Counted from the stretch's first letter, positions 197 through 49,123 are shown. The stretch: 55,822 bases of DNA from a virus (IMGVR_UViG_3300047095_000877:1-55822); one strand, 5' to 3'. Made by a program: numbers and translations. The notes: generated from the sequence alone by a model not told the origin.

Positions 197-385
197 ATGA
201 ACGACATAGACCGAGACGCAGCGCTGCTGATGGCGGGCATCCTGCTGCTGCTTTGCTTGATTGCCGGTTCCGTCACCTACCTTCAGGCATCAAGCGAAGC
301 AGCAGCCTTCAATCGCCTAACCACCGGCCCCAAGGTCACCACCTGGGACGCCGTCTGGCTGGATCTGCGCGTGGAGGCTCGCTGA
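197..385 (+). CDS. Small membrane protein
   Basis: ATG 197; hydrophobic stretch AALLMAGILLLLCLIAG; TGATG overlap with next gene. Confidence 0.65.
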   Translation: MNDIDRDAALLMAGILLLLCLIAGSVTYLQASSEAAAFNRLTTGPKVTTWDAVWLDLRVEAR

Positions 386-1206
386 TGGGCCTGACCAACG
401 CGGAGTACCACGCAAGACCCGAGGTCTCGAAAAGCGGGCTGGATCTGATCCGGCGTTCACCGCTGCACTACTGGAACCGCTACCTGAATCCGAACCGGAT
501 CGTGGAGCCACCGACACCGGCCATGGTGATCGGTTCGGCACTGCATGCGCGGGTGCTGGAGCCGCATCTGTTCGACGACGAGTACGTGGTCGCACCGGAG
601 GGCATCGACCGTCGCACCAAGGAGGGCAAGCTGCGGTGGGCGGACTTCGAGGCTGAAGCCGACGGCAAGACAGTCCTCAAGGCTGAGGACGCAGCTCAGA
701 TCGAAGCGATGGCCAGGGCGGTGCATAAGCACCTTGCGGCGAGCACGATCCTGCGGCTGCCTGGCAAGTGTGAGCAGTCTTACTTCTGGACGGATGAGAC
801 CACTGGTGAGGCATGCAAGTGCCGGCCGGACTGGCATAGTGACGACCGCCGCCTGATTGCCGATGTAAAGACTACCGACGACGCGAGTCCCCGTGGATTC
901 ATGCGTTCAGTGATCAAGTATCGCTACCACGTTCAGGCTGCGTTTTACAGTCAAGGCATTGGCGCAGAACAGTTTTTGTTTATTGCCGTCGAAAAGAAGC
1001 CGCCGTTTGCTGTGGCCGTGTACGCAACGCCGCCGGAGTTACTTGAGAAAGGGCTAATATACGCCGTTCAAGACCTGCGACAACTTGCCACATGCCGGGC
1101 CGAAAATCGATGGCCCGGCTACGGCGACGAAATACAGTCGCTAGTCATTCCAGACTGGCTTCAAGACGATCGTTCCGACTCCATTTCTGAAATCGAAGGT
1201 TTCTGA
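385..1206 (+). CDS. recE: RecE/exonuclease VIII-like PD-(D/E)XK nuclease
   Basis: YHA..VSKSGLD, GSALHARVLEP, CKCRPD, DVKTT, YHVQAAFY motifs. Confidence 0.9.
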   Translation: MGLTNAEYHARPEVSKSGLDLIRRSPLHYWNRYLNPNRIVEPPTPAMVIGSALHARVLEPHLFDDEYVVAPEGIDRRTKEGKLRWADFEAEADGKTVLKAEDAAQIEAMARAVHKHLAASTILRLPGKCEQSYFWTDETTGEACKCRPDWHSDDRRLIADVKTTDDASPRGFMRSVIKYRYHVQAAFYSQGIGAEQFLFIAVEKKPPFAVAVYATPPELLEKGLIYAVQDLRQLATCRAENRWPGYGDEIQSLVIPDWLQDDRSDSISEIEGF

Positions 1207-1871
1207 TGACTACTGAAAGCACAGCACTTGCCGTTACTTCAACAGTTGACGGTGTGTTCACGGGGATTCAACAATTCGAGAATGCTCAGCGCATCGCCAA
1301 AGCATTGGCTTCGTCCGCTTTGGTACCGAAGGAATACCAAGGTCAGACCGGTCTGGCCAACACGCTGGTGGCAATGGAAATTGCCGGCCGGATGGGCCTG
1401 AGTCCACTGCAGGTGATGCAGAACCTTCACATCATTCACGGGCGTCCTAGTTGGTCGTCGCAGTTCATCATTGCGATGATCAACGGGTGCGGGCGTTTCA
1501 CGCCGCTGGACTATAACGTCAGCGGTGAGGGGGACACTTTAAGCTGCTTTGCCTACGCGACTGAGATCGCAACAGGGAAGGAGCTGCGCGGTCCTGTTGT
1601 GACCATGGCCATGGCCAAGCGTGAAGGGTGGGCAACAAAATCAGGGTCCAAGTGGCAAACAATGCCGGATCTCATGGTCCGGTATAGAGCAGCTGCGTTC
1701 TGGGGGCGTCTTTATGTTCCTGAGTTCCTGGTTGGCATGAAAACACAAGAAGAAGTCGTTGACATACAAGAAGTTGAAGTAACCGAGAAGCCGTCGATCG
1801 TGGATGATCTGAACGGCAAGATCCAGGAACAAAAGGCATCTGAGGAGGCAGGAGATGATGCAGTCTGGTGA
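1206..1871 (+). CDS. RecT-like single-strand annealing protein
   Basis: LVPKEYQG, SPLQVMQNLHIIHGRPSWSS, SKWQTMPDLM motifs; coupled to RecE. Confidence 0.75.
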   Translation: MTTESTALAVTSTVDGVFTGIQQFENAQRIAKALASSALVPKEYQGQTGLANTLVAMEIAGRMGLSPLQVMQNLHIIHGRPSWSSQFIIAMINGCGRFTPLDYNVSGEGDTLSCFAYATEIATGKELRGPVVTMAMAKREGWATKSGSKWQTMPDLMVRYRAAAFWGRLYVPEFLVGMKTQEEVVDIQEVEVTEKPSIVDDLNGKIQEQKASEEAGDDAVW

Positions 1872-2324: not shown

Positions 2325-2756
2325 ATGTTTAACGGAACACTCACTGGCAATCTCGGCCGCGACCCCGACTTTCAGACCACGCAGTCTGGCCAGATGGTCG
2401 CGAAGTTCTCCCTGGCTGTCCGCCAGCCCAAGAAGCAAGGGCAAGACCAGCCCGCTTTTTGGGTGAAGGTGGAAGTCTGGGGCAAGCAGGCCGAGTATGT
2501 GGCCAACTACCTGAAGAAGGGCGCCAGCGTCTGCGTCACCGGCCAGGTGGCGGAGGAGCAGTGGAACGACAAGAACACCGGCGAGCTGAAGAAGGCCGTG
2601 GTGATTCGCAATGCGTCAGTGGAGAGCTGGCAGGCACGCTCTGAGGATGCCGCACCGGCACCGATGCCAATGCAGCAGCAGGTGGCCTATGCACCGGCAC
2701 CTGTCCCCCAGCAGGCGCCTCCGGCTCCGGTGTACGACGACAGTATTCCCTTCTAG
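2325..2756 (+). CDS. ssb: Single-stranded DNA-binding protein
   Basis: GNLGRDP OB-fold start, YLKKG, acidic DDSIPF tail. Confidence 0.97.
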   Translation: MFNGTLTGNLGRDPDFQTTQSGQMVAKFSLAVRQPKKQGQDQPAFWVKVEVWGKQAEYVANYLKKGASVCVTGQVAEEQWNDKNTGELKKAVVIRNASVESWQARSEDAAPAPMPMQQQVAYAPAPVPQQAPPAPVYDDSIPF

Positions 2757-11759: not shown

Positions 11760-11833
11760 TGGTAGGCCCACTCGGAGTTGAACCGAGATTTGCGAATTAA
11801 AAGTTCGCCACTCTACCGTTGAGTTATGGGCCC
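11760..11833 (-). tRNA. tRNA-Lys (UUU) with encoded CCA
   Basis: Minus strand GGGCCCA-TA-ACTCAACGGTAGAGT-G-GCGAA-CTTTTAA-TTCGC-AAAT-CTCGG-TTCAACT-CCGAG-TGGGCCT-ACCA. Confidence 0.95.
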
Positions 11834-11840
11834 GAAAGCT

Positions 11841-12066
11841 TGCGCGAATACTGCGCGAACGTGATTTCTGCTACTGCCTAACCCCTTGTTTTCACTCACA
11901 AAAATCAGCCTGATCAACTGATTAAAAGTCTCTTTCGGAAGTCTCACGCAACTTCACGCAAACTCATTAAACATCTGATTCATCAACAAGATCCGCTATT
12001 GCGTTTTTCGGCTGATTCGCGCAATTTACCGCAAATTCGCGCAAATCTGCGCGAATAGTGCGCGAA
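11841..12066. other. Putative attP
   Basis: AT-rich gap before integrase; paired TGCGCGAA repeats at 11841/11852 and 12048/12059; candidate core 11915-11930. Confidence 0.7.
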
Positions 12067-13178
12067 TGGAGGGACGCATGAAACGTGAGTGGAAGCCCGA
12101 TTCAAAGGTCACCGGACTGGGCCTGCTGGTGCTGCCGAGCGGGGTCGAAACCTGGTACCTGCGCTACCGCGAACCGAGCGGCAAGCAGCAGCATCACAAG
12201 ATCGGTCGGGCTGACATCCTCAACCGCACACTGGCCCGCGAAGAGGCGCACAAGATCCTTGCCGCCGTGGCGCGTGGGCATGCACCCACCAGCGCCCGCC
12301 AGGAGCTGCGCCGCGGCCCTGACATGACCGATCTGTACCAGCGCCTGCTGGCCGAGCACTATCCCAAACTGCGGCCGGGCACGGCGAAGAACTACCAGAG
12401 CATCTGGGACGTTCACATCATCCCGAAACTGGGCCGCCAGAAGGTGCAGATGATCACCAGCGCCGACGTGATGCGGCTGCTCTCGCGCATCCGGCCCATC
12501 CAGGCCAACCGGACGCTGGCGGTGCTGCGCAAGGCGTTCAACCTGTCGATCCTGTGGGGCCTGCGAGCGGACAATCCTTGCGCCAAGGTGCCGGCCAACA
12601 CCGAGCGCAAGCGGCGGCGTTATCTGTCAGGCGAAGAGCGGCAGCGGCTGGTGGCCGCACTGGGCGCGATAGCCACCTCGCCACTGCGCTGGCGGTTCGC
12701 TCAACTGGTGCGACTGCTGATGCTGACGGGGTGCCGCGTGAGCGAAATCTGCCGTGCCAGATGGGAGTGGTTCGACGAGAAGGCAGGCTTGCTGGCGATT
12801 CCCGCCGAGCATCACAAAACTGGTGAGCACACTGGCCAAAAACGTGTAGTGCATATTCCTCCTGCAGGAATTCTCATCTTGAGAGAACTGAGACTCAGAT
12901 CGAATACACAATGGATTATCGCAGGGCAGGACGATGGCTATCTGGTGGGGTATCAGAACCTATGGGAAGAGCTGATGGTGCTTGCCGAAATCAAGGATCT
13001 CAAATGCCACGATTTGAGGCACCACTGGGCCTCGGTGGCGATCACCAAGGTCGGCCTGACGCTGCCGCAGGTCGGCAATCTGCTTGGTCACGCCAGCCCG
13101 CTGACCACCAGCCGCTATGCGCACCTGCTCGAGGATGGGGCGCAGGCTATGGCGAGGGCCGTGGCTGATCAGATCTAG
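12066..13178 (+). CDS. int: Tyrosine integrase with N-terminal arm-binding domain
   Basis: GL.L.V.PSG..TW arm domain; TGCRVSE, HDLRH, LLGH, RYAH catalytic motifs. Confidence 0.97.
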   Translation: MEGRMKREWKPDSKVTGLGLLVLPSGVETWYLRYREPSGKQQHHKIGRADILNRTLAREEAHKILAAVARGHAPTSARQELRRGPDMTDLYQRLLAEHYPKLRPGTAKNYQSIWDVHIIPKLGRQKVQMITSADVMRLLSRIRPIQANRTLAVLRKAFNLSILWGLRADNPCAKVPANTERKRRRYLSGEERQRLVAALGAIATSPLRWRFAQLVRLLMLTGCRVSEICRARWEWFDEKAGLLAIPAEHHKTGEHTGQKRVVHIPPAGILILRELRLRSNTQWIIAGQDDGYLVGYQNLWEELMVLAEIKDLKCHDLRHHWASVAITKVGLTLPQVGNLLGHASPLTTSRYAHLLEDGAQAMARAVADQI

Positions 13179-16423: not shown

Positions 16424-16576
16424 CTAACCACCGGGAAGTGTTGGCCCATCGCCGAGAGGATCGGGCCTCCCGGCGAGGATGGCAACAGCGCGCTTGTAGT
16501 ACCAGTTGTCAGTTTTTCCTGCCGCTTCTAGCGCGTCCCTGATCTTGCGCCAGTTTTCGCGGACGGCCGGGTCCAT
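16424..16576 (-). CDS. Small hypothetical protein
   Basis: MDPAVRENWRKIRDALEAAGKTDNWYYKRA...; TAATG coupling; translated by hand. Confidence 0.7.
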   Translation of the reverse strand: MDPAVRENWRKIRDALEAAGKTDNWYYKRAVAILAGRPDPLGDGPTLPGG

Positions 16577-16713
16577 TACCGGCCTTGCCCCCTGAGGGGC
16601 TTCTTTCCACGGCGCCGGGGCCGGCTTTGTTGGCCGAACCCCTGGCGGGTGGTCTTGTGTGGGCCGGGCTGGTGCTCGATGCGAGCGGTGCCGGTCTTAC
16701 TCTTGACCGCCAT
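16576..16713 (-). CDS. Small basic protein ending RGQGR
   Basis: MAVKSKTG...KKPLRGQGR; translated by hand. Confidence 0.7.
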   Translation of the reverse strand: MAVKSKTGTARIEHQPGPHKTTRQGFGQQSRPRRRGKKPLRGQGR

Positions 16714-16867
16714 CGCCTTCTTCGTCAGCGGCCTGCTGCTTGGCGGTCACCTCGATGGCCTCTAAGAAGGCCGACAGTTGCTGGGCAGCGAACTGCTGAA
16801 GGGTGCCGTTGCCGCTGGCGCGTGCAGCAGCGTAAGCGTCGATGAGTTGAACGAGCTGTTCTTTCAT
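16697..16867 (-). CDS. Hypothetical protein
   Basis: MKEQLVQLIDAYAAARASG... Confidence 0.65.
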   Translation of the reverse strand: MKEQLVQLIDAYAAARASGNGTLQQFAAQQLSAFLEAIEVTAKQQAADEEGDGGQE

Positions 16868-16892
16868 GTGCGGTCCTTTGGACGGTTGGAGT

Positions 16893-17225
16893 TTAAGCCC
16901 AGGGCAGGCCGCTTGCTTTTTTGGGAGCCTGCTGTTCAGCGATCTGTGACGCGAGGGCGGCCTCGGTGGCTGCGACCTGCTCGGCACCGAGCTTCTCCTT
17001 GACCCAGCCGACCACCTGCTCCTTGCTGAGCTGGTCGAACGGGATGAGGTCGCCTTCGGGACGCTCAAGGCCGACAGAGCCGTAGGCACCGGCAGAGAAC
17101 TCACCAAGGGTGGAGCTGACGGTCCAGTGGGCGGTGTAGACGTAGCCGTCGCTCACCTCACGCTCGAGGTTGGCGATGTCCCAGGTGACGACGGGCTGGG
17201 GTGCGGGGGTGGATTTGGTGGCCAT
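16893..17225 (-). CDS. Tail-fibre-associated small protein, paralog 2
   Basis: TWDIANLERE..DGYVYTAHW..GAYGSVGLERPE..IPF..L..E.VVGWVKEKL..GLPW. Confidence 0.85.
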   Translation of the reverse strand: MATKSTPAPQPVVTWDIANLEREVSDGYVYTAHWTVSSTLGEFSAGAYGSVGLERPEGDLIPFDQLSKEQVVGWVKEKLGAEQVAATEAALASQIAEQQAPKKASGLPWA

Positions 17226-17260
17226 GGAATTGCTCCTCTGGGTCACTTTAGTCCCCGAAC

Positions 17261-18154
17261 TCAAAGCTCAGGGATTTCGTATTCCTGCGTGGTGTTGCAG
17301 TAATGCTTAAAGATAACTTCACTTGTGTTTCCTGCCCACGCTGCCACCTGTGGCACCGGAATTCCTGCCTCGATCCAGCGGCTGATCGCCGTGTGGCGAC
17401 AGTCGTACGGCCGATAAAGGTGGGAAATCAGTCCTGCCATGTGTAGCGGAGCAAGCTTCTTGCGAAAGTAGCTCTGAAATGCGAGGCGGTTCCACGGGAA
17501 GACGAACCTGTCCTCACGGGGCAGGTTTTGCAAGATCGCTTTGCACTTGGAGTTCAACGGAACCCACCGCTTCTTGTTGGTTTTCGTGCTTTCCTTCAGG
17601 CCGTGCGTCAGCGTGTAGTTGCGATGCACCAGCACTCGGCCGTCTTGGATGTCGTCCCAGCACATGGCCCGGACCTCGCCAGTGCGCATGGCGGTCTGCA
17701 GCATGAACTCTGCAAATAGCGACCAATCCACTTCGCGGTAGGTGAGCTTTGCAGTCAGTGCTGTGAGCACCAGCGCGATCTCGTGCCGAGGGATCACGGT
17801 GATCTCGCAGCTTTTCTGCGGCGCCTTGGGCATCCTGAAGTTGGCGACCGGGTTGCCGCTGATCAGGCCAACGTCTTCAGCGCACGCCCAGCGGTACATG
17901 CTGCGCACATACATGCACACGCGCCTAGCGGTGAGGATCGGCTTCTGCTGCAGCACCCAGATCAACACCTGCCGCCCTTGGGCAAGGTCTTGGATTGGGC
18001 AGCGCCCCATCCACTTCGTCACCTGCCGGTAGTCGCTAGTGAGGCTGGTGGGGCAGAGCGAGATGCTGCGCTCTTGCAAGAACATCGCCCACACTTCGGA
18101 AACTGTGTGAGCGCAAACGGGCGCAGCGGTCTGCGAGCGATAGGCTTCGGCCAT
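17261..18154 (-). CDS. Second tyrosine recombinase, no arm-binding domain
   Basis: TAMRTGE, KTNK, YDCRH, WAGN, KHY; ~300 aa beginning at the core-binding domain. Confidence 0.92.
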   Translation of the reverse strand: MAEAYRSQTAAPVCAHTVSEVWAMFLQERSISLCPTSLTSDYRQVTKWMGRCPIQDLAQGRQVLIWVLQQKPILTARRVCMYVRSMYRWACAEDVGLISGNPVANFRMPKAPQKSCEITVIPRHEIALVLTALTAKLTYREVDWSLFAEFMLQTAMRTGEVRAMCWDDIQDGRVLVHRNYTLTHGLKESTKTNKKRWVPLNSKCKAILQNLPREDRFVFPWNRLAFQSYFRKKLAPLHMAGLISHLYRPYDCRHTAISRWIEAGIPVPQVAAWAGNTSEVIFKHYCNTTQEYEIPEL

Positions 18155-18252
18155 CGGGTCCAATACAGCTGGATCTGATCACGGGTCAGGCGGGTGCAAC
18201 CGCGCTGGCCCACTCCATGCCTAGCACAACGCTCGCAGCGTAGATACCGCGA

Positions 18253-18576
18253 CTAAGCGGCCTGAGCAGCATTCCAAGGAACACCAGCTGCCTTGCTGGG
18301 TGCGTGTTGCTCATCGAGCTGAGCCTGCAGCGCAGCCTCGATTTCTGCCACCTTCTCGGCGGTCAGCTTCTCTTTGACCCAGCCGACCACCAGCTCTTCG
18401 GTCAGGTCAGCGAAGGGGATCATTTCACCTTCAGGGCGCTCTAGACCAAGCGACCCGTAGGCCCCAGAGTTGTAGGTGCCGTCGTTGGCGTCCACCACAT
18501 AGTGGGCGGTGAACACATAGCCGTCCAGGGTCTCCCTTTCAAGCTGAGAAATCTTCCAGGTGAAGGTGGTGGCCAT
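18253..18576 (-). CDS. Tail-fibre-associated small protein, paralog 1
   Basis: Clear paralog of 16893-17225. Confidence 0.85.
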   Translation of the reverse strand: MATTFTWKISQLERETLDGYVFTAHYVVDANDGTYNSGAYGSLGLERPEGEMIPFADLTEELVVGWVKEKLTAEKVAEIEAALQAQLDEQHAPSKAAGVPWNAAQAA

Positions 18577-18661
18577 GAGTGAAGTGGCGATGGTTCAGGT
18601 TATTGGTTGTGCAACCAGTTGAATAGGCCGGTTGCCCGCCTGGTGACATACGGCTAAGGGT

Positions 18662-18721
18662 GCTGAGCCTTTAATAAGACCGACCCTTATTCACATGCAC
18701 CGCTGAGCCTTTAATAAGACC
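18662..18721. repeat. 20-bp direct repeat GCTGAGCCTTTAATAAGACC x2
   Basis: 18662-18681 and 18702-18721. Confidence 0.95.
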
Positions 18722-18739
18722 CAGCAGTGACGTGGACTG

Positions 18740-18889
18740 CTAGCTGTCAGCAAGACGCTGCAAGCCTTCGCTGTTGTTGGCGTGCAAGGAATCCAGGGCT
18801 GCAATAGCTCCAGCTTCGCCAACATCATCCTGATTGCTCAGGTCAAGGCTGGCTTCGCAGTAGTCCTCGTAGGCAGTGGTGTCAGACAT
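18740..18889 (-). CDS. 49-aa acidic ORF between two palindromic sites
   Basis: MSDTTAYEDYCEASLDLSNQDD...LQRLADS; translated by hand. Confidence 0.6.
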   Translation of the reverse strand: MSDTTAYEDYCEASLDLSNQDDVGEAGAIAALDSLHANNSEGLQRLADS

Positions 18890-18907
18890 AGAAGTGAAGG
18901 GGACTCG

Positions 18908-19411
18908 TCACCGTGGCTGGTGACTCTCCATGTAGCGAAGAATTGCCTGCATTTCTTCCAGTGTGGCGTCGTTCTTAAGGAAGTTCGCCCTAGCCGAAAT
19001 GACCATGACGTTGCCTTTGGTGTAGCCACCATTGGAATCAATGCGATCCAACGTCGGTGCGTTCCAGTTGTCTTTCATCGAAACCCTGCCTTGACCGACT
19101 GTTGCTTGAAGCGGGATGCCAAGCACAGGGCACAGTTCAGGAATCACGATGTCGTCAACGGTCAAGTCGCAGTCAAGCCCTCGATCCTTGGCTCTGTTGT
19201 TTGCGTTGTACAACAGCTTTTTGCGTGGGTCAATCTTGATGTATTCCTTGTTGCGGCATTCCTTGCAACGTGCGCTGCGACGATTGCCGTCTGGACCCAC
19301 GCGGTATGCGCCTGCATGCTTATCTGGCCAGAAGCTGTCAAACGGTAAAAACTGCTGACAGCCACAGCACCAGAGTTCGCTTGGATCAGGCGATTTAACT
19401 GGCGCAGGCAT
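18908..19411 (-). CDS. HNH-like endonuclease with Zn finger
   Basis: CCGC..CKEC; CPVLG..PTLDRIDSNGGYTKGNVMVIS.RAN.LK. Confidence 0.88.
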   Translation of the reverse strand: MPAPVKSPDPSELWCCGCQQFLPFDSFWPDKHAGAYRVGPDGNRRSARCKECRNKEYIKIDPRKKLLYNANNRAKDRGLDCDLTVDDIVIPELCPVLGIPLQATVGQGRVSMKDNWNAPTLDRIDSNGGYTKGNVMVISARANFLKNDATLEEMQAILRYMESHQPR

Positions 19412-20532
19412 CAGGTGTAGACGATCATCAAGGTGCCATCCGACTTGCGATAAACGTCACCGTCTACCAATCCACCGGCTTTGGCTGCTGTGTTGTCAGC
19501 ATAAGTGGGCGTGTTGGCAAAATTAAGGATGCGGGAGTTCTTGATCCGCATCGCTTCGGTAGGTGATGACGCCCCATCAGCAGTAACGGAGAACACTAGG
19601 CGGCCTGGGTAGCTAGATCCAGCAGTCCAAGTCCCTCCATCCCTTTGTGCCTGTATCCACGCAGCATTTACATGCGTGGCATCGCCAAACATGATATAGC
19701 CGAGGTCTTCTGTTGAAGTTGGTCCATTTGTAGTTGTGCAGCAACGCAACACACCAGGACCAGTGGTACCGCTGTATCCTTGGAGAAGGAGTGTTGTATT
19801 GCTAGACGTGGAAGACGTACCAACTAAGAGGCGTCCGCTGGAGTCGATGCGGGCGCGTTCTGTGACGCCCGTAATGAACTGAAGATTTCCTTGATAACTA
19901 CTAATTTCAGCGGAATAATTATTGCTTTCTGCCCTAAACTGGAGTCCGGTAGTTGCAGAAGTACTCGTTCCGCCGTCAATCTTGATATAGCCAGTGGCAT
20001 TGCCTGTTGCAACGTGAAGTTTGACATCAGGGCTCGTAGTGCCCACCCCTACGCGGCCACTCGCATCAACAAACAACCGCCCAGCGCCATTAGTCGAGAT
20101 GGCTACTTGATCTGCGCCGGGGGAGTAGACGCCAGTATTCGTGTCGCCAGAGAAATACAGCCCCGGCGATCCAGCTGTGCCCGCGATGACGCCAAGCGCG
20201 CCGGTCATCACGTCGCCGCTGGCGTTCACGAACTCGCCGTCCTCGCTGCGCCACGCTGAGCCGTCCCAGATCTTGAAGACGTAGCGGCTGCTGCTCGTGT
20301 CTAGCCACTGCTCACCCACGCTGTTGCCGGCTGTGCCGCCGCTGGCCGGGCTGGCGTTCGGCGCTGTCGTGCCAACATGCACCGGTCCGACCTTCACCAA
20401 GTTGGCGTTGCTGTCCTTAAAGAACAGGCCAGGGCTGCCGCTGGCGGTGTTCATCGCCAGCTGCCCTTCCGACATGTTGCCGGGCACCGGCCGCTTATTT
20501 GCGGTGCTTGAACGCAGGTGTTGCAGTGCCAT
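19411..20532 (-). CDS. Tail fibre / receptor-binding protein (modular)
   Basis: EGQLAMN..PGLFFKD N-terminus; VGVGTTSP, ERARIDSSGRLLVGT, GRLVFS..EAMRI modules. Confidence 0.85.
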   Translation of the reverse strand: MALQHLRSSTANKRPVPGNMSEGQLAMNTASGSPGLFFKDSNANLVKVGPVHVGTTAPNASPASGGTAGNSVGEQWLDTSSSRYVFKIWDGSAWRSEDGEFVNASGDVMTGALGVIAGTAGSPGLYFSGDTNTGVYSPGADQVAISTNGAGRLFVDASGRVGVGTTSPDVKLHVATGNATGYIKIDGGTSTSATTGLQFRAESNNYSAEISSYQGNLQFITGVTERARIDSSGRLLVGTSSTSSNTTLLLQGYSGTTGPGVLRCCTTTNGPTSTEDLGYIMFGDATHVNAAWIQAQRDGGTWTAGSSYPGRLVFSVTADGASSPTEAMRIKNSRILNFANTPTYADNTAAKAGGLVDGDVYRKSDGTLMIVYT

Positions 20533-20577
20533 TCCTTAACGCCTCCTTGAAGGCCGGAAGTTACCTGTTCAGGCTAC

Positions 20578-23500
20578 TCAGAACGTCCCATCATCCAGAT
20601 CAGCAGTCACCGCCACCGTGCCATCACGGTTGGGCAGCGTGATCGTGCGGTCAGCAGTCGGATCAGCGCAGGTAAGCGTGGTCTCGAATGTGTCGCCGGT
20701 GGCGCCCTCGAACACGATGTTCACGCCAGCGCCCAGCTCGAGCGTGCCGGTCATCGTGCCGCCGGCCTTAGGCAGCGCTGCAGCCGCAAGATCGTAAGCC
20801 GACTTCACCGCGGTGGAGGTGGCGGCCAGTGCTGAGCTGCTGGTGCTGGTGCTGTCACTCAGCTGCACGATGCCATCCACTGATGTGGTGGCCGATCGGA
20901 TCGTCAGCGCCGGCGTGGTGGTGGCTGTCGCAACGGTCAGCGCCGCGGTGGAGCTGCTCACCGTGGTGACGGTGCCCACGAAGTCGTTGCCCCACTCCAA
21001 GCCGGTAGCTGTTGCGCTGTTGGCGCGCAGTACCTGACCGTTGCTGCCCACGCCGAGCTTGCTCAGCGCTGTGCCGCTCGAGGCCGCCAGCAGGTCACCC
21101 TTGGTGTAGCTGCCGGTGCCTGTGCCGCCCCGTGTAGCCAGCAGCGTGCCGCTGGTGATGTTGTCGGCGTTGCGGCACTCATTGGACACCTCCTCGAGCG
21201 CAGCCTGCACGTTGGTGCTGCCGAGGTTGGCGGCAGGCGTGAACCCAACGTTGGCAGCGGTCTGCGCCACGTAGGTGGAGCTTACGTCGATCTCGACCCA
21301 TGCGCTGCCGTTGGACAGGATCAGGTCAGGCGGTGCCAGTGCAACAGCAGGCGCCGGGCTGCTGCCGGTGCCACCGGTTGAGACAACAACGTAGTAGCTC
21401 TCGTTGACGTTCGATGCGGCCGGCAGCGGGTTGCCAACACTGAGGCCGATCGCGGTGCCTTCCGTGGTGACGGTGGCGACCTGGTTGGTGCTGGCGTTGT
21501 ACGTACCGGCGAAGATCACCGAACCGGCCGAGATACCGATCGGCTGCCAGACGTTGCCGTCCCACATGAAGAAGGCTTTATCGAGCGGATTCAGGAAGAT
21601 CTGCCCGATGTAGTCCGCAGTCGGCAGCACCTCGCCCACCTTGGCGGTGGAGTAGTTGGCGAGCTTCAGGCCGGTAACGGCGTCATCTGCAAGGAAGGCC
21701 GTGCCGAAGGTGCCGCTGGTGATCTTGCTGGCATCCAGCGACGGCACATCACTGGCGCTGAGCAGCGCGCCAGCGGTGACGTGCCCTTGCGCGTCCACCG
21801 TCAGCTTGGTGTAGGTGCCGGCGGTGGTGCTGTTGCTGTGATTCAGCGTGCCGCTGGTGACGGACAGGCCGCTGCCGGGTTGGACGATGCCCTTCGTGCT
21901 CGCGGTGGCATCCGGCAGGTCAGCGGGCACCAGCGCACGAAACGTTGGCGTTGCATCCACGCCGGTGGTTGGTCCCATCCATGCGCGGTTGGCCGCCTGC
22001 GTGTCGAGCCCCACCGTGATGGTGGCGGTGTAGGGGTCGGGGTAGGCAACTGCGAAATTGAGTGGGGTGGTCTCGGCAAAAGTGAGCAGCGCACCAAGAC
22101 TGGCCTGCCGCACCCAAGTGCTGCCGTCCCAGGTGTATTCGATCGCGGTGTTGGTGTTGATCCACTGCTGACCGATGAACGCACCATTACCAGCCGGGAC
22201 TGTGGCGGCCACCACTGCGGCGGAGTTGTTGGCCAGCTTGATGCCGGTGACGCTGCCCTCAAAGATCTTGCCGGTGGTGACGGCATTGGTCGCGATTTTC
22301 GCTTCTGTGATCGCGCTGTTGGCGATCGTCGCCGCGAAGGAACCGGTGCCGGAGCCCGTTACATCACCGGTCAGGGTGATCGTCTGGTCGCCGGTGTTGG
22401 TGCCTGAGCTGGTGCCGCTGAAGCTGGATCCATTGACCCAGGTGCCAGTGACTGTTGCCAGGTCACCCAAGCCGAGCAGGCTTCGCTGAGCTGAAGCACT
22501 GGCAGCTGCCAGCATGTCGCGACCAGCAGAGGTGGCTGGTATTTCCTGAATGACACCGCCACCGGCAGAGCTGCGACCAAGCAGCACGTCGTTGGTGGAG
22601 GTGTTCTGGATCTTGTCGTAAGTGACCGCCGCGCCAGCCAATTCGCTGGTGCCGATTGCGCCGGCAGCGATTTCGGCGGCCGTGATCGTGTCTGCGGCGA
22701 TCTTGCCAGCAGTGACCGCGCCAGCAGCCAGCTTGGCGGTGGTGACAGAGCCGTCGACCAGCTCGCTGGTGCCTACTGCCGCAGCGCCGATCTGCGTCGT
22801 GGTGATTGAATCTGCGGCGATCTTTGCGCCAGGGACGGATCCGTCCGCCAAATTCAGCTTGCTGTAGCTGATGGTGGCGGCGGCGATCTTTGCGTCGGTT
22901 ACAGCAAGGTCAGCCAGCTTGGCTGTGGCAACAGCGCCGTCGCCGATCTTTGCCGAGGTGACCGCAGAATTGACGATTGCAGCCGTGTCGACCGCGTCAT
23001 TAGCCAGCTCAGATGCACCAACGGCATCAGGGGCGATCTGCGCAGAAGTGATTGCATCGGCCGCGATCTTGGCGGCGGTTACGGCACCGGCGGCAATCTT
23101 TGCGGTGGTGACGCTTCCGTCTGCCAGCTCGCTTGTGGTGACGGCTGCGGCGGCAATTTGCGCGCTTGTTACCGAATCTGCTGCGAGCTTGGCGCCGGGC
23201 ACCGAACCATCGGCGAGGTTCAGCTTGCCGTAGCTGATGGTGCCGCTTGCGATCTTGCCATCAGTGACCGCAAGGTCGCCCAGTTTCGCCGTGGTGACAG
23301 CACCATCAGCCAGCTTGGCTCCGGTGACAGCGAGGTTGACAATGGCTGCGGTGTCAACGGCGTTATCGGCCAGCTCCGATGCGCCGATCGCGCTCGGCGC
23401 CAACTGCGCAGCGGTGATGCTGTCCGCTGCGATCTTGGCGGCAGTGATTGCGCTATCGGCAATCTTCGCCGTCGTGACAGAGCTGTCGGCATAAGCCGCA

Positions 23501-23967
23501 GTGCCCAGCGCGGTTACCTTGGCCGTCGTGACTGCACCATCAGCCAGCTTGCCGGTGGTGACTTGCAGATCGCCGATGCCGGCAGTCGGCACTACCAGCT
23601 GCTGGTAGGCGCTGCCGTTGAAGACCTGGAGATTGCCGGTGCTGCTGTTGAAATAGCCGCGGCCTTCAAAGTTGTCAGTTGTCGGCGAGGTGGTCTGAAC
23701 CGCAATCGAGCTGTCGGCGGCCAGCTTCGCTGCAGTGATTGCGCCGGTCGCCAGCGCCGTGGCTCCCAGCTTGGTGGCGCTTGCTTGATCGAGCTTGGCA
23801 AGGTCGATCTCGCCGTTGTCGACAAGGTCGATGCCGGCGGCGATCAGATCCTTGGCAGTGACCTTTTTGGTCTCGCTGGCCGAGATGTCCGAAATCGGCA
23901 GGACGTCGTTTGCCGCGACGCCAGCCTTAGACAGGGCTGTCAGCTGTGTAATGCGTTGGTCAGCCAA
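20578..23967 (-). CDS. Long tail fibre with 10-aa repeats
   Basis: AVTTAKLADG-type repeats, GTYTKLTVDAQGHVTAG, GIVQLSDST, PTADRTITLP. Confidence 0.88.
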   Translation of the reverse strand: MADQRITQLTALSKAGVAANDVLPISDISASETKKVTAKDLIAAGIDLVDNGEIDLAKLDQASATKLGATALATGAITAAKLAADSSIAVQTTSPTTDNFEGRGYFNSSTGNLQVFNGSAYQQLVVPTAGIGDLQVTTGKLADGAVTTAKVTALGTAAYADSSVTTAKIADSAITAAKIAADSITAAQLAPSAIGASELADNAVDTAAIVNLAVTGAKLADGAVTTAKLGDLAVTDGKIASGTISYGKLNLADGSVPGAKLAADSVTSAQIAAAAVTTSELADGSVTTAKIAAGAVTAAKIAADAITSAQIAPDAVGASELANDAVDTAAIVNSAVTSAKIGDGAVATAKLADLAVTDAKIAAATISYSKLNLADGSVPGAKIAADSITTTQIGAAAVGTSELVDGSVTTAKLAAGAVTAGKIAADTITAAEIAAGAIGTSELAGAAVTYDKIQNTSTNDVLLGRSSAGGGVIQEIPATSAGRDMLAAASASAQRSLLGLGDLATVTGTWVNGSSFSGTSSGTNTGDQTITLTGDVTGSGTGSFAATIANSAITEAKIATNAVTTGKIFEGSVTGIKLANNSAAVVAATVPAGNGAFIGQQWINTNTAIEYTWDGSTWVRQASLGALLTFAETTPLNFAVAYPDPYTATITVGLDTQAANRAWMGPTTGVDATPTFRALVPADLPDATASTKGIVQPGSGLSVTSGTLNHSNSTTAGTYTKLTVDAQGHVTAGALLSASDVPSLDASKITSGTFGTAFLADDAVTGLKLANYSTAKVGEVLPTADYIGQIFLNPLDKAFFMWDGNVWQPIGISAGSVIFAGTYNASTNQVATVTTEGTAIGLSVGNPLPAASNVNESYYVVVSTGGTGSSPAPAVALAPPDLILSNGSAWVEIDVSSTYVAQTAANVGFTPAANLGSTNVQAALEEVSNECRNADNITSGTLLATRGGTGTGSYTKGDLLAASSGTALSKLGVGSNGQVLRANSATATGLEWGNDFVGTVTTVSSSTAALTVATATTTPALTIRSATTSVDGIVQLSDSTSTSSSALAATSTAVKSAYDLAAAALPKAGGTMTGTLELGAGVNIVFEGATGDTFETTLTCADPTADRTITLPNRDGTVAVTADLDDGTF

Positions 23968-48616: not shown

Positions 48617-49123
48617 ATGGCAAAGAGTTTACCGCCCCTCGCGGAGCTGAGGGAGTGGCTGCGTTACGAAGTGGAAACTGGCGAGTTCTTCTGGTTGAAG
48701 TGTTCAGGCAAGAAAATGCAACCAGGCAAAAAAGCCGGCTGGGTTACGCGCTTTGGATATGTGAACATCACCTTGAATAACCAAAGAATGCAAGCCCACC
48801 GCTTGGCTTGGTTGTTTGTGTATGGAGAGGATCCCGGCGAAAAGATGATCGACCACATCAACGGCGATCCCGCCGACAACAGGATCTGCAACCTAAGACT
48901 TGCTAAGTCTGTCGACAACGCTCGCAACAGGCGCAAATTAGAGGGGGCCACCTCCTCCTACAAGGGCGTGAGCTGGTACAAGCGCAAGCGTAAATGGGTT
49001 GCCCAGATCGGTATCGACGGCAGATCTACCCATCTGGGCTACTTCCACGACGAGCTGGCCGCTCACATGGCCTACTGCGAGGCGGCGCAGAAGTATTTTG
49101 GTGAATTTGCGAACTTCGGATAG
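48617..49123 (+). CDS. HNH-AP2 homing endonuclease
   Basis: AHRLAW..IDHINGD..DNRI.NLR; SSYKGVSW..W.A.I..HLG.F..AY AP2 domain. Confidence 0.95.
   Translation: MAKSLPPLAELREWLRYEVETGEFFWLKCSGKKMQPGKKAGWVTRFGYVNITLNNQRMQAHRLAWLFVYGEDPGEKMIDHINGDPADNRICNLRLAKSVDNARNRRKLEGATSSYKGVSWYKRKRKWVAQIGIDGRSTHLGYFHDELAAHMAYCEAAQKYFGEFANFG

Follow-up and report, generated by a model that had tools for sequence, protein, structure and literature searches.

Mosaic tail fibres recombine at short conserved segments, as is the case for the gp37/gp38 motifs of the T-even phages and for the fibres of P2, Mu, P1 and lambda. The host range of a phage is set by its tail fibres, and the tail-fibre gene considered here (positions 19411–20532, minus strand, 373 residues; best match to the PHROG tail-fibre families at E 7.2e-33) belongs to a virus record of 55.8 kb (IMGVR_UViG_3300047095_000877:1-55822; 100 % complete by CheckV estimate), the whole of which is referred to below as the window and which, among named phages, is closest to the freshwater Synechococcus siphovirus S-LBS1. 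The gene carries four 15-bp elements of the type TAG-N9-CTA on the minus strand (site 1, 20091–20105; site 2, 20037–20051; site 3, 19812–19826; site 4, 19584–19598), which an earlier note on this DNA had proposed as targets of a tyrosine recombinase encoded downstream (17261–18163, minus strand) in an exchange of receptor-binding modules. The analysis reveals that the fibre gene is a chain of exchangeable modules, that the sites lie in or beside the junctions of these modules and that the conservation of the junctions is independent of the recombinase. Like the known mosaic fibres, the family of the window has variable receptor-binding modules between nucleotide-conserved segments that extend across unrelated phages, its block boundaries lie in the conserved segments and the number of modules is variable. 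It differs from them in its hosts, which are freshwater and estuarine Synechococcus, in the very short length of its cassettes (187–300 bp) and in the in-frame rare-codon signature TAG-N9-CTA borne by each junction. No earlier description of this signature was encountered, though no literature search was aimed at it.

Site-specific recombination systems offer a second comparison. The core sites lox, FRT and dif consist of inverted binding arms of about 7–13 bp around a 6–8 bp spacer, whereas the sites of the window have 3-bp arms around 9 bp and are imperfect in two of the four cases. In the Rin shufflon of Bifidobacterium prophages, several silent C-terminal cassettes each follow the same 11-bp repeat, and the inversions map to these repeats (PMC6109161). 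The window resembles Rin and the tail-fibre inversion systems Min/Gin/Cin in having a recombinase gene next to a receptor-binding gene with a variable C-terminal part; it differs from Rin in that it has no silent cassettes, no repeated site and no serine invertase, and in that the sites do not follow the recombinase. From the features of the Rci/R64 or Rin type, the adjacent recombinase is present in the window and the repeated crossover sequence of 11–19 bp is not. The earlier note had seen no silent inverted copies of the fibre gene, and indeed neither inverted nor direct copies of fibre segments were found within the window. A classic invertible segment or shufflon is ruled out by the lack of inverted fibre copies and of a serine recombinase (PF00239), as is a diversity-generating retroelement by the lack of a reverse transcriptase (PF00078).

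Three further systems resemble parts of the locus. Free-standing homing endonuclease genes of phages include seg and mob of the T-even phages and F-CphI of cyanophage S-PM2. Like these, the HNH gene that follows the fibre gene of the window is small and lies between conserved genes. Only some loci have it, it is far better conserved than the DNA around it, and adjoining sequence moves along with it. It differs from these genes in that the sequence transferred with it is the end of a tail fibre that binds the receptor, and its role is a predicted one. The regions seen in the structures 8OND and 8OJN are β-helix domains of the mosaic adhesive trimeric (MAT) fibres of Bdellovibrio (PMC10769870), and the junction-1 peptide of the window aligns with the start of these β-helix domains. 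MAT fibres are, unlike the fibre of the window, bacterial surface fibres, and only about 60 residues match. Finally, S-LBS1 shares with the window the order tail fibre, integrase, DUF7936-like gene, its integrase being 71.5 % identical to the recombinase of the window, and a low G+C content of its fibre gene is remarked upon in the S-LBS1 paper (PMC6157547). The window differs from S-LBS1 by the addition of the HNH gene, a second DUF7936 gene, a second integrase with a tRNA gene, and RecE/RecT-like genes.

Modular organization of the tail-fibre gene

The tail-fibre gene is made up of an N-terminal part followed by three short modules and is the shortest of its family, the complete fibre open reading frames (ORFs) of its relatives coding for 385–1015 residues compared with 373 in the window. 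The loci used for comparison were taken from viral contigs, and comprise 71 with a related fibre gene and 80, at 68–83 % identity, of at least 117 with a related recombinase. Three nucleotide-conserved linkers, all on the minus strand, form the module junctions. Junction 1 (20057–20160) has a 50-bp core at 20057–20106, with short blastn matches of 85–94 % identity in many loci ending at 20057; site 1 lies at the upstream edge of this core and site 2 just outside it. Junction 2 (19813–19860) is defined by matches of 87–94 % identity at 19860–19811 and has site 3 at its downstream end, and junction 3 (19544–19612), for which 72 instances were aligned, contains site 4. Conservation at the junctions spans 48–104 bp and is not centred on the 15-mers. 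Among named cultured Synechococcus phages, 11 have junction 1 in their fibre genes at 74–98 % nucleotide identity, the podoviruses S-CBP1, S-CBP3 and S-CBP4 being three of them; in the latter two the identity reaches 96–98 %. Junction 3 was detected in six named cultured phages.

Comparison with the related loci shows where blocks of different ancestry meet. The most recently exchanged block comprises the last two fibre modules together with the HNH gene (18893–19833, minus strand); it is 99.9 % identical over 941 bp in two loci, L023 and L024, which on either side of it do not resemble the window. In two others (L054 and L144) the third module alone is 95.5 % identical (19833–19544), in three (L064, L071 and L005) the last module and the HNH gene are 91–97 % identical from 19608–19612 to 18884–18895, and two more (L014 and L009) are 90–91 % identical to the N-terminal part of the window down to 20065–20067. 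Cassettes of 187–300 bp are common to otherwise unlike fibre genes, including pairs of loci that both lack the recombinase. An all-against-all comparison, in which the junctions are defined by their likeness to those of the window and block ends do not count as independent events, placed 79 unique ends within fibre genes; of these, 23 % fall in junctions, compared with 8 % of random places, and 52 % lie at most 50 bp from a junction, compared with 28 % of random places. The same behaviour is seen in contigs from lake metagenomes (four runs from four studies), which part from the window at 20106, 20057, 19860, 19843, 19833, 19612, 19598 and 18896; one such contig splits from the window exactly at 19598, the edge of site 4, and one fuses 19833 straight to 20057. 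Mosaic breakpoints thus fall in the conserved junctions that contain or adjoin the sites, and the placing of the sites at module junctions with in-frame swapping between phages, as put forward in the earlier note, is borne out.

Two side observations concern the junctions themselves. The summed contig depth in the bin of junction 1 (20050–20163) amounts to 28–109 in the four lake runs, compared with about 5 in the neighbouring bins; junction 1 is a feature of many further phages in these lakes. Moreover, two or three copies of junction 3 are present in several fibre ORFs (L006, L048, L067 and L073), which, together with the range of ORF lengths in the family, reveals that the number of modules changes as well. 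At the protein level, the junction peptide matches the start of the β-helix domains in the solved Bdellovibrio trimeric fibres 8OND and 8OJN (E 6.7e-5 and 2.9e-4, respectively), indicating that the junctions are structural domain borders.

A codon signature at the module junctions

The four 15-mers of the window are found where the earlier note had placed them, in a single codon phase of the fibre gene and built on rare NTA codons. They start within GTA, GTA, TTA and CTA codons, respectively; in 13 long ORFs of the phage, GTA accounts for 6.6 % of the Val codons, and TTA and CTA for 1.1 % and 3.0 % of the Leu codons. Sites 1 (reading VAISTN) and 2 (reading VGVGTT) are exact TAG-N9-CTA, and sites 3 and 4 are each one arm letter off, the latter through Val in place of Thr. 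Because the family consensus at both of these positions is the exact TAG-N9-CTA, sites 3 and 4 of the window are slightly diverged copies. The sequence common to all four sites is limited to TAG and CTA; a longer common arm, a repeated site of at least 11 bp or a repeat family was not found in the region 16500–20700.

Taken on its own, the pattern in the window is statistically weak. Counted over the whole window, exact TAG-N9-CTA occurs 6 times, compared with 1.84 expected (1 of 100 shuffles reached 6). The fibre gene holds 2 exact matches, where its synonymous shuffles give 0.2 (P 0.0165; the pattern was selected post hoc). With one mismatch allowed, the fibre gene contains 7, compared with 4.6 (P 0.15), and palindromes of any 3-9-3 type number 16 for about 17 expected, i.e. 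without excess.

Across the family the signature is much stronger. The tail-fibre DNA of the relatives amounts to 113.7 kb, divided over 106 unique spans (85 of stated recombinase status and 21 truncated), in which TAG-N9-CTA was found 243 times, 233 of the matches being in one codon phase. The density amounts to 2.05–2.49 per kb in the 85 spans and to 1.42 per kb in the 21 truncated ones, compared with 0.04–0.43 per kb for control spacings (N6, N8, N10 and N12) and other arm orders, which corresponds to a 5- to 60-fold enrichment over the control patterns. The matches sort into four peptide classes that are the four sites of the window, and among unique relatives the exact pattern is present in 39/65 for site 1, 43/73 for site 2, 40/61 for site 3 and 39/75 for site 4. 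The 15-mers are a real, family-wide and in-frame nucleotide signature at module junctions, and the sites described in the earlier note recur at the same places in homologous fibre genes, far above the controls.

The signature resides in the choice of codons, which was scored in 53 unique fibre ORFs. The first codon is NTA in 75–94 % of the instances at the four junction classes, compared with 21–24 % gene-wide and 10 % in 136 further occurrences of this peptide pattern, loosely defined. The fifth codon is NCT in 80–97 %, compared with 18–34 % gene-wide and 21 % in the same 136 instances. Both codons are therefore used 3–5 times more at the junctions than gene-wide. At site 4, synonymous conservation reaches 80–91 % over four codons, with 32–55 % in the flanks. 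The cores of site 4 are distributed bimodally: of 74 unique sequences, 57 are free of third-position changes and 11 have three to five of them, a distribution that fits junction alleles which would have spread by recombination. Where the second codon of site 4 no longer starts with G, NTA is still kept in 7/8 variants; it is therefore the codon that is conserved, and not the TAG triplet. Synonymous conservation in the junctions is also specific for the position, Phe being encoded by TTT at residue 154 and by TTC at residue 314. On the other hand, TAG-N9-CTA was found in none of ten distant phages that have the same peptide motif (Thermus and Roseobacter phages, cyanomyoviruses and P-SSP3), so the pattern is not a general need of the fold.

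Occurrence of the sites with and without the recombinase

Of the 71 related fibre loci, only 7 have the recombinase on the downstream side of the fibre gene. Ten whole related records (seven at least 90 % complete by estimate, two with terminal repeats) contain neither a homologue of it (0/10) nor any PF00589 protein (0/10), the same search finding both integrases of the window as a control, and all ten carry exact in-frame sites, one to four each. The density of TAG-N9-CTA is 2.49 per kb where the recombinase is present, as against 2.05 per kb in loci that have the whole interval from the fibre gene to DUF7936 but no recombinase in it. For unique sequences with and without the recombinase, respectively, the exact site is present in 12/27 and 27/38 for site 1, in 18/31 and 25/42 for site 2, in 17/29 and 23/32 for site 3, and in 30/39 and 9/36 for site 4, which gives 77/126 and 84/148 for the pooled sites. 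An association of exact sites with the recombinase is therefore limited to site 4 and is gone when the four classes are pooled. Cultured phages give the same result: a homologue (E <= 1e-10) is absent from 10 of the 11 cultured phage names that share junction 1, and S-LBS1 is the only cultured phage with a close homologue.

The limits of the exchanged DNA point in the same direction. The newest block (19833–18893) ends 15 bp past the HNH gene at a place where no site exists, and this speaks against the recombinase because an exchange of cassettes between two sites would need a site there. Co-occurrence of sites and recombinase had been set beforehand as a test, and the pooled counts show no such association; with the sites equally common without the enzyme, the claim that the neighbouring recombinase does the swapping is not supported. 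Since the junctions are equally present in related phages that lack it, ordinary recombination by homology, and not this enzyme, is the likely cause of the swapping.

The HNH gene

The gene that follows the fibre gene (18908–19411, minus strand) codes for an HNH/endonuclease VII-like protein, and its start overlaps the fibre stop codon. The protein matches the PHROG endonuclease, endonuclease VII and HNH families (E 1.3e-33, 4.6e-23 and 5.1e-11). The gene is present in some relatives and absent in others at the same place, occurring in a minority of loci, and its product retains 94–100 % amino acid identity where the fibre is only 50–73 % identical. All shared blocks that carry the gene stop 13–24 bp past its stop codon. 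Judged by its family matches and its distribution, it is probably a free-standing homing endonuclease gene. A Val/Ala variant of junction 3 is present in 10/10 copies located directly upstream of an HNH gene, compared with 9/84 of the others; it may be an allele that resists cutting, or may simply be linked to the last module.

Probable exchange of modules through short homology, and competing explanations

The explanation that we consider likely is that of a modular trimeric fibre whose domain junctions provide short stretches of homology for general recombination, with the HNH gene carrying the last module along. The modules would be short domains of about 65–100 residues in a trimeric tail fibre, each beginning and ending in a conserved strand motif like the one found at the starts of β-helix domains in solved trimeric fibres. 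The junction DNA, nearly identical over its 48–104 bp among lake and estuarine Synechococcus phages of different families, would allow modules to be swapped in frame by homology-dependent recombination, either in co-infection or with prophage remnants. RecE/RecT-type systems, as used in recombineering, act on a few tens of bases of homology. We infer that the swapping may be carried out by the phage's own RecE-like exonuclease (253–1206, plus strand; phrog_412, E 1.2e-97) and RecT-like annealing protein (1206–1871, plus strand; phrog_561, E 3.1e-76), and in relatives by other phage or host recombination proteins. In the same way we infer a homing activity of the HNH protein: the last module would travel with the HNH gene inserted right after the fibre stop codon, and this gene probably promotes its own spread while co-converting the adjoining end of the fibre gene. 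The 15-mers would then be the cores of the junctions and owe their TAG...CTA appearance to rare NTA and NCT codons that the junction alleles have retained.

Several observations weigh against this explanation. A homologue of the RecT protein of the window was found in only 1/10 related records, which rules out RecT as a feature common to the family and implies that the other phages need other recombination functions. The HNH protein has no match in Pfam and none in the PDB. The dependence of the block-end statistics on junctions defined from the window, mentioned above, belongs here as well. Hitch-hiking in its simple form does not obviously account for the way in which the end codons are conserved. 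At site 2 the third positions of the end codons are kept at 79 % and 89 % and those of the three middle codons at 45–48 %. In the NTA and NCT codons it is the first position that varies and the third that stays, and both codons are retained or lost jointly. Moreover, the excess of exact site 4 in loci with the recombinase favours the proposal of the earlier note; absent at sites 1–3, it probably reflects relatedness.

The earlier note had proposed that an arm-less recombinase reads the four elements as heterospecific core sites and swaps like-for-like modules by a double site-specific crossover. The enzyme is real, conserved and co-oriented with the fibre gene, the sites are a true in-frame signature at module junctions throughout the family, and both the joint behaviour of NTA and NCT and the excess at site 4 count in its favour; the related integrase of S-LBS1 is moreover of unproven role, lysogeny being proposed for it in a paper which, in its available part, reports no evidence of lysogeny (PMC6157547). 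This proposal is nevertheless hardly tenable in view of the exact sites in all ten PF00589-free records, the lack of pooled association and the similar densities, the absence of the enzyme from nearly all cultured phages sharing junction 1, arms of 3 bp that are broken in half of the sites of the window with no repeat of at least 11 bp, a 99.9 % identical block that ends at a place without a site, and the retention of NTA in site-4 variants that have lost the following G. A reading in which the four sites are chance look-alikes with nothing behind them beyond the peptide motif would suit the window taken alone, where near-matches and 3-9-3 palindromes are not enriched, but the 5- to 60-fold enrichment across the family and a codon choice far from gene-wide usage make it very improbable.

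Two other explanations address the codons directly. In one of them, the junction cores would be cis-acting signals for another phage or host factor, a nuclease or nickase such as a homing endonuclease, that starts recombination at domain borders. The sharp synonymous core at site 4 and the restriction of the signature to the gene pool that exchanges modules, with its absence from all ten distant phages having the same peptide, agree with such a role, and the Val/Ala variant next to the HNH gene is distributed as a cut-resistant allele would be. Linkage to the last module, however, accounts for that variant just as well, and only a minority of loci have the HNH gene. Moreover, 3-bp half-sites do not suffice for specific recognition, with no longer shared flank seen, and the factor is only postulated. 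We thus think it unlikely that this explanation holds, and give the same small chance to the statement that the in-frame TAG-N9-CTA cores at every domain junction are true recombination signals read by a phage or host factor other than the neighbouring integrase. Were it true, the fibre genes of several lake and estuarine cyanophage families would form one natural pool of targeted cassette exchange for receptor-binding domains. In the other explanation, no less doubtful, the rare NTA and NCT codons would delay translation at the start of each domain and so let the trimer fold in register, and the DNA pattern would be a by-product. It draws on the rarity of both end codons in the phage and their three- to fivefold preference at junctions, on the constancy of the third codon position with a variable first one, and on the persistence of NTA without the following G. 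Codon choice is, however, not shared by the distant phages (read by eye), which at the place of site 2 have GTA in 4/10 and ACT in 2/10, three of the four GTA cases being in A+T-rich genomes. Furthermore, site 3 is one codon out of register with site 2, so that the rare codons are not structurally equivalent (peptides read by eye), and site-4 cores are either fully kept or fully diverged, as expected for allele lineages and not for selection at each site.

The fibre family offers very short (about 190–300 bp) and unusually clean domain cassettes. Cyanophages belonging to different families have them in common by way of near-identical junction DNA, at which the lake contigs are joined in alternative ways, and this makes the gene a good natural system for receptor change in phages of bloom-forming and picoplanktonic cyanobacteria. 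The rare-codon signature of the junctions is a concrete and testable oddity, and an integrase beside a fibre gene does not alone make a site-specific exchange system.

The recombinase and its surroundings

The earlier note had described a co-oriented recombinase without an arm domain and a separate integrase elsewhere, and both are present. The recombinase, a protein of 300 residues of the S-LBS1 integrase type, starts 1.25 kb past the fibre stop on the same strand and matches PF00589 with 47.9 bits compared with a curated cut-off of 27.1 (E 1.6e-12) and phrog_1 at E 1.5e-39; no arm-binding domain was found in it by Pfam, and no match to the sequence of a solved structure was obtained. The second integrase, of canonical type (12066–13178, plus strand, 370 residues; PF00589 with 61.9 bits, phrog_1 at E 4.9e-60), lies directly beside a tRNA-Lys gene (11760–11833, minus strand, identified by ARAGORN), an arrangement typical of integration modules. 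The active site of tyrosine recombinases consists of Arg, Lys, His-x-x-Arg, His/Trp and Tyr. When the recombinase was aligned with the canonical integrase of the window, Arg160, Arg256 and Tyr288 were found to be present, with Tyr253 in place of the first active-site His and Asn278 in place of the second. Arg160, Tyr253, Arg256, Asn278 and Tyr288 are each conserved at a level of at least 98 % in 67 homologues, and the conservation of the two replacements points to an unusual active site rather than to decay.

Among its relatives the recombinase is always found beside a DUF7936 gene. Of 75 loci, 56 have it before a single DUF7936 gene (fibre-recombinase-DUF7936) and 16 after one (fibre-DUF7936-recombinase), the order being undetermined in the other 3. 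In the window, two DUF7936 paralogues flank the recombinase, copy a (18253–18576, minus strand; PF25590, E 5.8e-34) and copy b (16893–17264, minus strand; phrog_7802, E 2.9e-37), and include a direct repeat of 192 nt at 71 % identity; judging from this arrangement, the window looks like a recombinant of both gene orders. An integrated copy of the recombinase was not found in a single scan of genome contigs, the only hits being two contigs of metagenome-assembled genomes, both phage-like. These contigs (L156 and L157), labelled Hyphomonadaceae and Methylacidiphilales, carry homologues of 73–74 % identity and are probably phage contigs binned with bacteria. By default, the recombinase is read as an accessory integrase of the S-LBS1 type with a putative role in integration.

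About 90 nt just upstream of the start of the recombinase (18164–18252) are conserved in the window and in 13 other aligned sequences, which have the order DUF7936-recombinase (L141 and L149, for example). Single-base insertions and deletions in the alignment indicate that this stretch is non-coding. It contains a short G+C-rich palindrome, as read by eye from the alignment, and could be a regulatory site or the recombinase's own target. A third exact TAG-N9-CTA, at 18241–18255, was taken as a chance match; it overlaps with the stop codon of copy a of the DUF7936 gene and is not conserved in the 13 other sequences of the same gene order (alignment read by eye).

Gene order and other features of the phage record

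The fibre region lies on the minus strand, with the genes transcribed in the order large upstream fibre protein, tail fibre, HNH protein, DUF7936 copy a, recombinase, DUF7936 copy b. Upstream of the fibre gene lies the gene of a large tail-fibre protein of 1129 residues (20578–23967, minus strand) with the phage tail fibre repeat PF03406 (E 1.5e-9). The DNA between the sites had been described as richer in A+T, and the G+C content is indeed 0.65–0.68 at 20100–20499 and 0.49–0.54 at 18500–20099, with values dropping from about 0.66 to about 0.52 below position 20100. Elsewhere in the window are an SSB gene (2325–2756, plus strand; phrog_44, E 1.1e-33) and a second HNH endonuclease gene (48617–49123, plus strand; phrog_99, E 9e-63), unrelated to the one adjacent to the fibre gene. 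The spacer between the fibre-adjacent HNH gene and DUF7936 copy a measures 330 bp; it contains a perfect direct repeat of 20 nt (18662–18681 and 18702–18721, 40 nt apart), and part of it is 93 % identical in L064.

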